Assembly (NCBI GenBank): GCA_938004065.1
Contig: CALKWM010000017.1
Location: 15,342 to 79,341 of the forward strand
Origin: an uncultured bacterium
GTDB lineage: Bacteria; Patescibacteriota; JAHJAL01
Length of the DNA: 64,000 bases
Direction: 5' to 3'
Shown one piece after another: positions 14,575 to 64,000 of the stretch; position 1 is the stretch's first letter; each line of letters starts with the position of its first letter. Below the pieces are notes generated by a model. That model saw only the letters and a list, made by a program, of their open reading frames with translations, was not told the origin of the DNA and searched no databases. The position numbers and the translations under genes were made by a program.

Positions 14575-15358
14575 TCAAAAAATCTAACGATTTTAACTCC
14601 TTTTTATGATAAATATCAAATAATTTAAATGAATAGTCCATCACTTCTTTTGCGCCATAAATCGATTCCGTGTTTATCAATTCATCGCAAGATTTTGTCG
14701 CTACCTGACAATACATATCATAAATACCTCTATTCATCTCACCAAAAACCAGATTACCACTTACGCATTTTTTACAACACACTCCGTACTCCGTCATCAA
14801 TAAATCACTCACCACATCTTTTCCGCAAATACTACAACCCAAAACAATCGGTAACCTTCCCGATAACGCCAGTACCGACATCAAAAATGATGCTAAAAAC
14901 AACTCAATTTTTTCACGTTTATCAAAATTCAGCCGATTTCGTTGATAGCAATCCAGATAGTCACAAACCAAATTAAATATCGTCTGATCATCTTGACCAA
15001 ATACACTGAGCAATTCCACCACTTCCATCAACAACCCCCCCACTCCCAGTCCGGCTAAACTTTTTTCCAGCATTTTATAATCTTCAACCAATACTGCATC
15101 TTTCAAAATATCAAATCCCCTTCTTTGTTCCACCTCAATTTGCAATATCAAAAAACTGTCCGACAACCCACCAAGTCTCGACCCGGGTTTTCTAACTCCT
15201 TTGGCCAAAACATCTATCCGACCGAAATCTTCAGTCAACAACAACAACACTCGGTCATATTCACCAAAATTTCGCTTCTTCAATACCAAGGATTTAGTTT
15301 TAATTAATTTTTCCAAATGATTATATTTTAACTCCACGATATTTGATAGATAAAACAA
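14549..15358 (-). CDS. recO: DNA repair protein RecO
   Basis: 269 aa with an N-terminal OB-fold region, RecO-like conserved segments and a C-terminal Cys4 zinc motif (CSICGK...CCKKC). Confidence 0.75.
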   Translation of the reverse strand: MFYLSNIVELKYNHLEKLIKTKSLVLKKRNFGEYDRVLLLLTEDFGRIDVLAKGVRKPGSRLGGLSDSFLILQIEVEQRRGFDILKDAVLVEDYKMLEKSLAGLGVGGLLMEVVELLSVFGQDDQTIFNLVCDYLDCYQRNRLNFDKREKIELFLASFLMSVLALSGRLPIVLGCSICGKDVVSDLLMTEYGVCCKKCVSGNLVFGEMNRGIYDMYCQVATKSCDELINTESIYGAKEVMDYSFKLFDIYHKKELKSLDFLNEVYKNLS

Positions 15359-61750: not shown

Positions 61751-62026
61751 ATTTTTTTTGAAATAAATAAACTAAAGACACCTTCTCATTATAAATCATT
61801 CTTTAGTTCGAATAATTATTCAATGATAAAACAGAAATTTCAATTCTGGAAATTATGTATTACGTAATAATTAACAAAACTATCTTCCACTCTTTATTTT
61901 CACAAGAATATACCAAAATTCATTCTTACTCGATCAACCCTTCACTTAAATTTACTTGTGTATAACTTCATCTTGTTAACTTTCTATTTATTTTCTATAA
62001 TTTTTATATAAGTAATAAATAATTAT

Positions 62027-63484
62027 ATGATTACAAAAAAACAAAAGGAAATATTGGAATACATAAAGAAATATTATTCTATACATGAATATTCTCCAGC
62101 ACTAGAAGACATTAAAAAACATTTCAGAATGTCTTCTGTTTCCACAGCCCATCATCACGTAAAAAAACTTGAAGAAAAGGGATTTTTAAAAAAAGACGGA
62201 AATATACCTAGATCAATTTCTGTTTTTGAGAATGAAAAAATGGTGAATATCCAATTGATGGGGAAAATTGCTGCCGGTCACCCAATAGATGCAATATTAG
62301 AAAAAGAGACAATTGCAATTCCTAAAAGTAAAATATCAAAACCAGGAAGTTATTACGCATTAAAAGTTATCGGAAATAGCATGATTGATGAAAACATATA
62401 CGATGGAGATATTATTTTAGTTAAACAACAAGACACTGCTGAAAATGGTCAAAAAGTTGTAGCATTAATAGATAACTGTGAAACAACATTAAAACAATAC
62501 TTTAAAGAAAAAAATAGTATTCGATTGCAACCAGCAAACAAAAAAATGGAACCCATAATCATTCAATCAAACAGAGAGATAAAAATACAAGGAATTATTA
62601 TTGATATAATAAATTCACTACCAAAACCACCTTTAAATATTCGAGCAACTGACAAAATTTACAAAAAAAACAAAAAAAAATTAGTTAATAATCAAATAAT
62701 TTGTGGCGATTGCGTAAAAATACTTAGAACTATACCTGATAATTCCATTGATTTAGTAGTTACCTCACCACCATATGACATGGTAAGAAAATATAATGGA
62801 TTTAGTTTTAATCTTCACGAAACTGGCCAAGAATTGTATCGCGTTTTAAAAAATGGAGGCATTGCAACAATGGTCATACAAGATCAAACTAAAAATTTCG
62901 GCAAATCTCTAACTTCTTTTCGCACAATAGTTGATTGGGTCGATAATATTGGTTTCAAACTGTTTGAGACAGTTATATACAGAAAACACGGAACAGAAGG
63001 AGCATGGTGGAAATATAGATTTCGTGTAGATCATGAATACATGCCAATTTTTATTAAAGGAGAAAAACCAGCTTATTTCAATAAAGAACCATTAAAAATA
63101 CCATCGAAACATGGTGGTAAGGTTATGACAGGAAGTGGTAACCGTAAAACAGATGGAACAACTACAAAAACAGTAACCAGAGCAATTAATTCAACAAAAT
63201 GCCGAGGAACTATATGGGACTATTTAAATGCAGGGGACAAAAATCCACTAAAAAGAAAACACCCAGCAGTTTTTCCGGATAAAATTCCTTTTGATTTTAT
63301 TCAATGCTTCTGTCCGCATAATGGGATTGTTTTAGATCCGTTCGTTGGTTCCGGCTCCACAGTAGTTATGGCAAAACAACTCGGTAGAAAATATATTGGA
63401 ATTGATATTTCCCAAGAATATTGCAACTTATCAAAAGAGAGATTAAAAACTGTTAACAAAAGTTTATTTGATAAATTAGAATAA
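62027..63484 (+). CDS. Fusion protein: LexA-type repressor/S24 autopeptidase (N-terminal, about 195 aa) fused to a beta-class N4-cytosine/N6-adenine DNA methyltransferase (C-terminal)
   Basis: Residues 1-~75 form a LexA winged-helix DNA-binding domain (EILEYIKKY...ALEDIKKHFRMSSVSTAHHHVKKLEEKGFLKK). It has the Ala-Gly cleavage site (KIAAGHPID), the catalytic Ser in GNSM and Lys in ILVKQQD. The methyltransferase has motif IV DLVVTSPPY preceding motif I LDPFVGSGST, which is beta-class order. It is one uninterrupted 485-codon frame. Confidence 0.75.
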   Translation: MITKKQKEILEYIKKYYSIHEYSPALEDIKKHFRMSSVSTAHHHVKKLEEKGFLKKDGNIPRSISVFENEKMVNIQLMGKIAAGHPIDAILEKETIAIPKSKISKPGSYYALKVIGNSMIDENIYDGDIILVKQQDTAENGQKVVALIDNCETTLKQYFKEKNSIRLQPANKKMEPIIIQSNREIKIQGIIIDIINSLPKPPLNIRATDKIYKKNKKKLVNNQIICGDCVKILRTIPDNSIDLVVTSPPYDMVRKYNGFSFNLHETGQELYRVLKNGGIATMVIQDQTKNFGKSLTSFRTIVDWVDNIGFKLFETVIYRKHGTEGAWWKYRFRVDHEYMPIFIKGEKPAYFNKEPLKIPSKHGGKVMTGSGNRKTDGTTTKTVTRAINSTKCRGTIWDYLNAGDKNPLKRKHPAVFPDKIPFDFIQCFCPHNGIVLDPFVGSGSTVVMAKQLGRKYIGIDISQEYCNLSKERLKTVNKSLFDKLE

Positions 63485-63940
63485 TTTATCATTAGTTTCT
63501 ATTGTATATTCAATGTTAGTTCCACTAGTCATTGCCATTGACAGTGGATTTGTATCCATTAAAGAACTATAAGTCTGGTTATTCAAAGAAGTTTTGGAAA
63601 AATCACCTTTGCTAAACTTATATAGACGAAAATTATTCCAATGCCACTTCTCTACTTGATAAGACCAACCAACATATTTTGCCATTGAAATCACAAATTC
63701 TTCAATTCTAATCTTTTCTTTATTATGAATATCAACTGTAGAAATATTATTCACTAAATTTATTGGTATACCACTAGAATTACTTATTCTAAGTTTATCT
63801 CCCGTTCGCTTATTTCTACCACCTTCAATATACAATCCGCTACCATTGCAATATCCCGTTGCATTAAAATTGTCCCTCATCCTTAAAAAATCATTTAATC
63901 CTAACATTATTTCATAAAAACTATAATGGTTTGCACACAA
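63476..63940 (-). CDS. Hypothetical protein convergent with and overlapping the LexA-methyltransferase gene (candidate partner, e.g. a restriction endonuclease). Speculative.
   Basis: About 143-154 aa. A TTG start sits at about 63939 with an in-frame stop just upstream; the first ATG is 11 codons in. It overlaps the methyltransferase stop by 9 nt. No family recognised. Confidence 0.4.
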   Translation of the reverse strand: MCANHYSFYEIMLGLNDFLRMRDNFNATGYCNGSGLYIEGGRNKRTGDKLRISNSSGIPINLVNNISTVDIHNKEKIRIEEFVISMAKYVGWSYQVEKWHWNNFRLYKFSKGDFSKTSLNNQTYSSLMDTNPLSMAMTSGTNIEYTIETNDKLF

Positions 63941-64000
63941 TAATGAATTTAGAATTTGATTTTTATTATTAATGCTTAAATAATTTATCCACTCAATACA

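Follow-up and report, generated by a model that had tools for sequence, protein, structure and literature searches.

The stretch of DNA analysed here (the window, 64,000 nucleotides) comes from an uncultured bacterium of the Patescibacteriota (GTDB lineage JAHJAL01) and corresponds to positions 15,342 to 79,341, forward strand, of contig CALKWM010000017.1 in GenBank assembly GCA_938004065.1. At its right-hand end lies a minus-strand open reading frame (ORF), which meets, tail to tail, the gene of a methyltransferase fused to LexA. This ORF is likely to encode the C-terminal half of R, the nuclease of a type II restriction-modification (R-M) system, the intact form of which is arranged as C-box, controller (C) gene and R gene, convergent with the methyltransferase (M) gene. 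The first-pass annotation had proposed that the ORF might be the restriction partner of the methyltransferase, and this core idea gained support from the near-obligate presence of a methyltransferase neighbour, the C genes and a natural fusion of M and R domains, all described below. The wider proposal, an unrecognised catalytic class of type II restriction endonuclease with a divergent DHH fold, a swappable specificity domain and an antidote methyltransferase that in Patescibacteria would be wired to the SOS response through LexA, DNA damage (self-restriction included) thereby increasing methylation, is put forward tentatively, as a possibility that falls somewhat short of being probable.

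The ORF is real, as had been described: it ends with a stop codon at 63476 and can be read as 154 amino acids from a TTG codon at 63940, or as 143 amino acids from an internal ATG. The size so obtained is an artefact of the window edge. The frame (63476-64000, minus strand) remains open up to base 64000, with 175 open codons and a sole stop at the end, and the earlier statement that the window extends 60 bp beyond the ORF was mistaken, the 5' side not being closed. By our own arithmetic, about 8% of codons would be stops at a GC content of about 28%, and the chance of reading through 175 codons without meeting one is about 1e-7 per frame; the ORF is therefore not a product of chance. The neighbourhood beyond 64 kb was read from locus L001 (GCA_036848155.1, DAIUKQ010000002.1; 218,679 bp), located through an exact match to the LexA-methyltransferase protein, for which the window coordinate equals the L001 coordinate plus 52026; a second, independent assembly (Logan, L002) is identical to L001 across 12.7 kb. 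On L001 the gene has 342 codons (L001 11450-12478, the equivalent of window 63476-64504), and the ORF is its 3' portion. As judged from the open frame, L001 and the homologues, the window thus holds the 3' 525 nt of a putative restriction-nuclease gene (63476-64000, minus strand; residues 169-342 and the stop codon), and the earlier TTG and ATG starts are internal codons 189 and 200. This part encodes the final helices of the N-terminal domain and the entire C-terminal domain, which is variable within the family, and the motif residues D30, D32, D72, H86 and D156 all lie in the part of the gene outside the window. After repair of a single-base deletion, the 342-residue protein is matched over 100% of its length by full-length homologues, also of 342 residues, with 82-88% identity; among all homologues aligning end to end, the length is 330-350 residues. 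The tail-to-tail overlap of 9 nt with the methyltransferase gene (63476-63484; R stop 63476-63478, M stop 63482-63484) is exactly as first reported, and an identical R/M overlap of 9 nt is found in the relatives L003 (7021-7029) and L005 (1191-1199).

For the analysis of genomic context, 85 loci were gathered solely by homology to the ORF, and the presence of a methyltransferase was then screened by tblastn against the methyltransferase domain of the window. An orthologous beta-class N4/N6 methyltransferase (PF01555) adjoins the ORF homologue in 84 of the 85 loci, with E-values from 1e-37 to 1e-165. In 83 loci the methyltransferase gene is convergent, at a distance of 0-200 nt or with a short overlap of a few bases; the exceptions are L071, with the methyltransferase gene upstream on the same strand, and L065, without a methyltransferase. 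An ORF widespread without a methyltransferase neighbour, the pattern that the first-pass annotation had named as adverse to a partnership, is not what is seen among these loci.

In about 40 of the 85 loci, a gene of the HTH_3 family (73-75 amino acids) is located directly upstream of the ORF homologue, often overlapping it. Inverted repeats such as ATATTCCAATTTGGAATAT are conserved upstream of these genes, and the right half-site is often present twice. Judged from sequence, such a small HTH_3 gene together with upstream inverted repeats represents the hallmarks of R-M controller proteins and C-boxes, even though the matches of these genes to the PADLOC Control_protein model are weak (1.8e-3). 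Both hallmarks, the small HTH_3 gene upstream of R and the palindromes, are found in the relatives, and only a 3' remnant of the C gene is left in the genome under study. Across the loci L003-L087 the C-box-like candidate operators of the C genes are palindromes of the type ATATTCC-N5-GGAATAT, with variants such as ATAACC...GGTTAT and ATATCC...GGATAT; the second right half-site often stands about 10 nt downstream of the C-box-like palindrome, and the half-site varies among subgroups of the C proteins.

More distant members of the family are also found beside PF01555 methyltransferases, including L090 (an overlapping operon in the order M to R), L093 (a convergent methyltransferase gene) and L089 (a methyltransferase fragment). 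At L091 (1719-4954), in an archaeal metagenome-assembled genome (GCA_028211295.1), the distant member follows two consecutive N6_N4 methyltransferase genes of 243 and 418 amino acids; an arrangement with two methyltransferases is typical of systems with asymmetric target sites. The metagenomic protein P0204 (623 amino acids) is a natural M-R fusion, with an N6_N4 methyltransferase at residues 20-255 and the conserved domain of the nuclease family at residues 310-503. The distant members share just the N-terminal portion of about 190 residues, their C-terminal domains being different, and the C-terminal domain of the family changes together with the type of methyltransferase. It is this variable C-terminal domain, the part encoded in the window, that probably supplies DNA recognition.

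The family is large, with 507 matches in a collection clustered at 90% and 629 cluster representatives at E <= 1e-3 in an exhaustive profile search, and all of its named members are labelled 'hypothetical protein'. Its distribution is patchy, with hosts among Patescibacteria, DPANN archaea, Clostridia, Mollicutes, Bacteroidota, Ignavibacteria, Chloroflexi and Planctomycetes. Because the adjacency of the methyltransferase, the C genes, the fusions and the scattered hosts occur together, we identify the ORF family as the probable nuclease of a mobile type II R-M cassette. At L006 (3680-11046), the cassette of C, R and M genes is flanked on one side by a gene for a large serine recombinase (Resolvase/Recombinase/Zn_ribbon_recom) and on the opposite side by a UDG-like gene followed by a gene for an OLD-family ATPase-TOPRIM nuclease, and this region looks like a mobile defence islet. 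Searches of Pfam, NCBIfam and PADLOC with the 174-residue fragment, the repaired 342-residue protein and two sets of 66 family members gave nothing meaningful, and no Pfam match to HNH, GIY-YIG or PLD was obtained at E <= 10 with the protein and the same two sets. A search of PDB sequences with the single protein and two profiles gave no match. The phage collection contained no annotated homologue, while the plasmid collection gave one weak match, annotated as hypothetical.

High-confidence AlphaFold models were available for two family members, P0002 (predicted local distance difference test, pLDDT, 95.8; predicted template modelling score, pTM, 0.94) and P0242 (pLDDT 93.5, pTM 0.92), with a mutual identity of about 21%. 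In both models a helical linker joins two alpha/beta domains, one N-terminal and one C-terminal. In the numbering of P0002, the residues D32, G50, D72, H86, K122, P124 and W172 are invariant in a diverse alignment (A3), and D30, G33, Y52, S82, G84, N108, Y123, D156, Y165 and N168 are conserved in at least 90% of it; in another alignment (A1), D30, D32, D72 and D156 are all invariant. The order D30-x-D32 ... D72 ... (G84)-H85-H86 ... D156 mirrors motifs I to IV of the DHH enzymes. Motifs I (DxD), II (D) and IV (D) are conserved and in order. At the position of motif III the consensus is S-x-G-H-H, of which H86 alone is invariant, and the place of the Asp is taken by Gly84. The counterparts in NrnA of D30/D32, D72, G84-H85-H86 and D156 we take to be D24/D26, D80, D102-H103-H104 and D156, respectively. 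The GGGH motif of DHHA1 and DHHA2 is not present in the family consensus, the conserved C-terminal string of which is P-x-S-x-A-x-T.

When P0242 was compared with PDB by Foldseek, 25 of the top 50 matches belonged to the DHH family. The best match was RecJ (5f55, E 8e-3) and the second best NrnA (5j21); DhhP, RecJ-Cdc45 (probability 0.47), GAN, RecJ2 and GdpP were among the others. The top matches of P0002 in BFVD were phage RecJ, NrnB, exopolyphosphatases and 'DHH family phosphohydrolases'. Taken together, these models and residues lend moderate support to the view that catalysis resides in a metal-dependent phosphoesterase domain of a DHH-like, very divergent type. A fold of the PD-(D/E)XK or HNH type, for which the first-pass annotation had proposed to look, gave no signal in Pfam, NCBIfam, PADLOC, PDB sequences or Foldseek. 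Other readings of the active site were considered and rejected. A PD-(D/E)XK reading of P29-D30 ... D53-G-K55 fails on the loss of D53 in distant members and on the predicted strand topology, which misfits; the motifs were also read as HAD-like (DxDG...S...K...DG) or as Toprim, but His86, which is invariant, and the fold matches fit DHH instead, and no HAD or Toprim structures were among the matches.

The partner gene (62027-63484, plus strand) encodes a LexA-methyltransferase, in which LexA (winged helix-turn-helix and S24) occupies residues 1 to about 200 and the beta-class N4/N6 methyltransferase domain, with the motif TSPPYD, residues of about 215-485. The Pfam matches are LexA_DNA_bind (1.6e-12), Peptidase_S24 (3.6e-29) and N6_N4_Mtase (PF01555, 4.1e-39). 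The LexA portion is complete, reaching 169.9 bits against the cutoff of 110.95 for NCBIfam lexA (TIGR00498) and aligning end to end with a manually entered sequence of E. coli LexA (E 6e-29), with AAG, GNSM and TLK at the expected columns. It keeps the Ala-Gly cleavage site and the Ser/Lys dyad. The other domain carries both PF01555 and the (S/D)PPY motif of the beta class, and its nearest solved structures are N4-cytosine methyltransferases, CcrM and M.PvuII; the predicted assignment is to the N4-cytosine/N6-adenine class as a whole. Its best PADLOC match is the 'orphan methyltransferase' model PDLC03714 (1.4e-51), a label that probably reflects an unrecognised partner nuclease, given the same partner in 84 of the 85 relatives. 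As to the LexA/S24 status of the loci, the module is fused to M in 33, a separate S24 gene lies beside M in 8, and neither is present in 43.

Upstream of the LexA-methyltransferase gene, an operator-like direct repeat (61981-62001, plus strand) is formed by two copies of TTTCTAT (61981-61987 and 61992-61998) with a period of 11 nt, the second copy overlapping a −10-like TATAAT at 61996-62001. An exact direct repeat with the same 11-nt period (at least 7 nt; 7-10 nt seen) was detected upstream of 19 of 32 LexA-fused M genes, the corresponding figures being 7% for M genes that lack S24 and 3% for shuffled sequences, and the copies at the fused genes overlap a −10-like box. The half-site differs from locus to locus (TTTCTAT, TTCGGTA, TTTCGAT, TGCTCGGGT), and the two copies at any one locus vary in concert, which suggests that the direct repeats are candidate operators co-evolving with each fused LexA domain. 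In many LexA-methyltransferase promoters, a motif TGTGGATAAC is present 10-40 nt upstream of the direct repeats, the window copy being located at 61957-61966 (TGTGTATAAC). This motif, found at L017, L019, L021, L023, L027, L042, L045, L046, L049 and L070, is the reverse complement of a DnaA-box-like TTATCCACA. The first-pass annotation had suggested that the ORF could be the partner in an SOS-gated system. That description holds at most for the methyltransferase, with its LexA module and repeats, and fails for the nuclease, which is probably under C-protein control in the relatives. Since LexA and the repeats belong to the M gene and R would be under the C protein, SOS gating, if any, would act on M and not on R.

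In the genome under study, the R gene carries a 1-nt deletion at about codon 41 (about L001 12352), outside the window. The alignment of DNA against four relatives showed a single-base gap of this genome at that codon, and the two assemblies agree at the site, which is located neither in a long homopolymer nor in a recognisable slippery site. The product annotated on L001 is 307 amino acids long (L001 11450-12373), starting at a TTG codon immediately after a TAG. The other frame upstream has an ATG at L001 12478 and opens with 'MTNEQINYKKIINDYPWVIEKKQKYILSPDSDGFLCGLLVTN...', and the two frames joined give 342 amino acids. The repaired protein keeps 27 of the 27 family-invariant residues; because all of them remain, the lesion in R would be recent.

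The C gene was also affected. Only 134 nt separate the R gene from tRNA-Gln(CTG), and no intact C gene is present. As far as the start codon of R, the spacer aligns colinearly with the last 125 nt or so of the C genes at other loci, with an alignment score of 30 against 22.7 +/- 2.2 for shuffled sequences, none of 200 of which reached 30. Since the spacer aligns only to the 3' part of the C gene, the 5' half of this gene and the C-boxes must be gone, and about 12 nt separate the junction of the remnant from the tRNA-Gln 3' end. With the frameshift, the truncated C gene and the lost C-boxes, this genome has no intact, expressible R gene. The R copy is thus very probably dead, and a toxicity assay of it, as had been suggested, is predicted to be negative. 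On this reading of the sequences, the R arm has decayed in this genome, and the LexA-methyltransferase is intact and now effectively solitary. Decay of R leaving a solitary M is a common end-state of R-M systems.

Several observations weigh against the identification of the family as a restriction nuclease of DHH-like fold. Nuclease activity, specificity and toxicity are predictions for every member of the family, and the frameshift is read from assemblies rather than from inspected reads. A distant homologue on plasmid pB6464 of Alkaliphilus sp. B6464 (L088 4944-6032) has no methyltransferase nearby, and P0201, a distant relative likewise without a methyltransferase neighbour, adjoins a PD-(D/E)XK protein. 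Avoidance of palindromes, examined for 84 pooled host loci (790 kb), revealed the generic depletion of GATC and GGCC alone and no candidate target. As to the fold, the Foldseek matches of P0002 in PDB were noise, with no DHH protein among the top 50, and no match in any Foldseek search reached E <= 1e-3, the TM-scores being 0.2-0.3. The Pfam DHH model (PF01368) matched 1 of 66 members, with E 0.21, and none in A3. A comparison of the family with an NrnA profile by hhalign was not significant (Prob 0.2, E 0.3); the NrnA side was represented by a single sequence, with 95% identity to the real NrnA, and by an alignment of 120 sequences, and the greedy alignment, itself a non-significant match, placed DxD, D and GHH on motifs I to III of NrnA. 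The DHH enzymes known to us are exonucleases or phosphodiesterases and not site-specific double-strand endonucleases. Of the two distant relatives without a methyltransferase (L088 and L092), one is located beside dnaE and a MazF toxin gene and the other beside a PD-(D/E)XK nuclease gene, and the N-terminal domain may, to judge from these neighbours, be used outside R-M systems too.

These points lead to the question of whether the family might be a DHH-type exonuclease or phosphodiesterase standing beside the methyltransferase for another purpose, such as the processing of nicked or damaged DNA, the degradation of oligonucleotides or nucleotide signals, or an accessory role in repair or anti-restriction. 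The sole fold resemblance is indeed to RecJ, NrnA, GdpP and DhhP-type enzymes, which act on ends, short oligonucleotides or cyclic dinucleotides, models of restriction endonucleases in Pfam and PADLOC were not matched, and some distant relatives are free of a methyltransferase neighbour. We nevertheless regard such a role as unlikely: adjacency to a single orthologue group of methyltransferases is near-obligate (84 of 85), a dedicated C gene with C-box-like palindromes directly upstream is the usual means by which toxic R genes are controlled, the C-terminal domain changes with the type of methyltransferase, and a natural M-R fusion exists. In addition, the cassettes are mobile and patchily distributed, and R and C have decayed together here while M is intact, the usual fate of R-M systems. 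The small enzyme that the first-pass annotation had envisaged, an intact PD-(D/E)XK or HNH restriction enzyme of 143-154 amino acids resembling R.PvuII, agrees with the tail-to-tail overlap with a beta-class methyltransferase of the SPPY type, and yet its probability is now close to nil. No upstream stop exists in the window, the homologues of 330-350 amino acids align over the whole length to a protein of 342 residues and two domains, and neither sequence nor fold gave a PD-(D/E)XK or HNH match.

A different question is whether the gene is still functional in this genome, be it that the frameshift is an assembly error, that programmed frameshifting yields the full 342 amino acids, or that the 307-residue product from the TTG start is active. 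All 27 invariant residues are intact in the repaired protein, the 307 codons contain no further stop, and the gene callers of NCBI and Logan both give the 307-residue product. Against this, the two assemblies are identical at the site, where neither a long homopolymer nor a recognisable slippery site is present, and the 307-residue product is devoid of D30 and D32, two residues with full or almost full conservation throughout the family, its TTG coming right after a TAG. The loss of the upstream C gene and operators also fits the decay of the whole R arm, and a functional R gene in this genome is thus very unlikely. The preferred reading remains that of a restriction nuclease family, represented here by a decayed copy.

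The two genes form an AT-rich island, the R-M cassette, which occupies 61751-64000 of the window and, beyond its edge, extends as far as the equivalent of base 64638, directly next to the 3' end of tRNA-Gln(CTG). Its GC content within the window is 28.9%, compared with 36.1% for the remaining window; the difference of 25% against about 35% reported in the first-pass annotation was therefore right in direction and overstated in magnitude. The entire island (2,888 nt; L001 9725-12612) has 28.4% GC, whereas windows of equal size elsewhere in 73 kb have a mean of 36.3 +/- 1.7% and a minimum of 32.6%. The GC content at third codon positions is 0.19-0.20 in the island, as compared with 0.34-0.38 in the neighbouring genes, and the island shows the largest tetranucleotide distance within the 73 kb. 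The flanking genes on L001, encoding LPG synthase, GltX, Na/H antiporter and YraN, are present in none of the other cassette-bearing loci. Horizontal acquisition, as had been suggested, agrees with this foreign composition and with the absence of the flanking genes elsewhere. No convincing direct repeat of the 3' end of the tRNA, of the kind expected of an att site, was found at the opposite border of the island.

The tRNA-Gln(CTG) gene is located at L001 12613-12683, minus strand (the equivalent of window 64639-64709, beyond the window), next to gltX. The genes beyond it on L001 (gltX, yraN, rnhB, rplS, one for an amidase, and dnaE) are likewise encoded on the minus strand. A 52-residue ORF called at L001 12511-12669 overlaps this tRNA gene and is probably spurious. 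Within the roughly 12 kb of L001 that were inspected to each side of the cassette, all called genes are on the minus strand except the methyltransferase gene. The GC skew of the plus strand of the window is extreme and uniform, about −0.4 over the first 62 kb, and is about 0 only across the methyltransferase gene.

Based on its organisation, the system is of a known kind, a C-controlled type II R-M system with a beta-class methyltransferase, and its unusual features are the unprofiled nuclease, the DHH-like appearance of this nuclease and the LexA-fused methyltransferase with its own putative operators. Known C-protein-controlled type II systems with a beta-class N4C/N6A methyltransferase include PvuII, BamHI, Esp1396I and Kpn2I. 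As in these systems, two or three small genes are present, with R and M adjacent (here convergent), a controller gene of the HTH_3 family that directly precedes R and overlaps it, palindromic operators further upstream and a PF01555 methyltransferase with SPPY, and the cassette is mobile, AT-rich and patchily distributed. In contrast to these systems, the nuclease shows no detectable relation, by sequence or Foldseek, to PD-(D/E)XK, HNH, GIY-YIG, PLD or half-pipe enzymes, and it has 342 amino acids in two domains, twice the size assumed earlier. A whole LexA is attached to the N-terminus of the methyltransferase in many hosts, and both C and R are defective in this genome.

With the DHH/DHHA1 phosphoesterases (RecJ, NrnA/NrnB, GdpP, DhhP and archaeal RecJ/Cdc45/GAN) the nuclease shares the two-domain construction and the residue order DxD ... 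D ... (x)HH ... D, with spacings near those of NrnA, and DHH proteins lead the top fold matches (P0242 against PDB, P0002 against BFVD), all below threshold. It differs from them in having no significant sequence or profile match, a Gly in place of the first Asp of 'DHH' and no C-terminal GGGH. We know of no DHH enzyme in the role of an R-M partner, and the literature searched contained nothing linking DHH to restriction enzymes and nothing on LexA-methyltransferase fusions. Methyltransferases of the SsoII/Ecl18kI/MspI type carry an N-terminal autoregulatory helix-turn-helix, and the LexA-methyltransferases resemble them in the fusion of a DNA-binding domain before the methyltransferase and in the operator-like repeats over the M promoter. 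Unlike in those enzymes, the fused module here comprises the whole of LexA, its Ala-Gly site and Ser/Lys dyad included. Because this cleavage site and dyad are retained, repression of M could be lifted by RecA-dependent self-cleavage. The repeats at the LexA-methyltransferase promoters also differ from the classical palindromic SOS box, being direct repeats of 11-nt period.

In the mechanism that we propose for the intact systems, the small HTH_3 controller would bind the palindromic C-boxes and both delay and activate the expression of R, the beta-class methyltransferase would mark the target site, and the 342-residue R protein would cut unmethylated sites. Catalysis would reside in the conserved N-terminal domain of about 190 residues, with D30-x-D32, D72, H86 and D156 arranged as DHH motifs I to IV, while the subfamily-specific C-terminal domain of R is probably responsible for sequence recognition. 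The full LexA that many Patescibacteria have on the N-terminus of M probably represses its own M promoter via the direct repeats spaced by 11 nt. Self-cleavage stimulated by RecA after DNA damage would then lift the repression, leading to more methylation while the chromosome is being cut, and R would be governed separately by the C protein.

For the window itself the meaning is more modest, a decaying pseudogene fragment beside a now solitary LexA-methyltransferase. For the family, the consequences would reach further. To our knowledge, the restriction enzymes described so far use five catalytic folds, PD-(D/E)XK, HNH, GIY-YIG, PLD and half-pipe; a widespread DHH-like family of R-M partners, if true, would be a sixth restriction fold and would give DHH enzymes an endonuclease role. 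Surveys based on profiles would miss this nuclease, because the methyltransferase best matches an 'orphan' model and its partner matches no model of PADLOC, Pfam or NCBIfam, and R-M systems may be more numerous in Patescibacteria and DPANN archaea than has been counted. The fusions of LexA and methyltransferase with co-varying candidate operators suggest, in addition, a testable link between the SOS response and the control of the R-M antidote.

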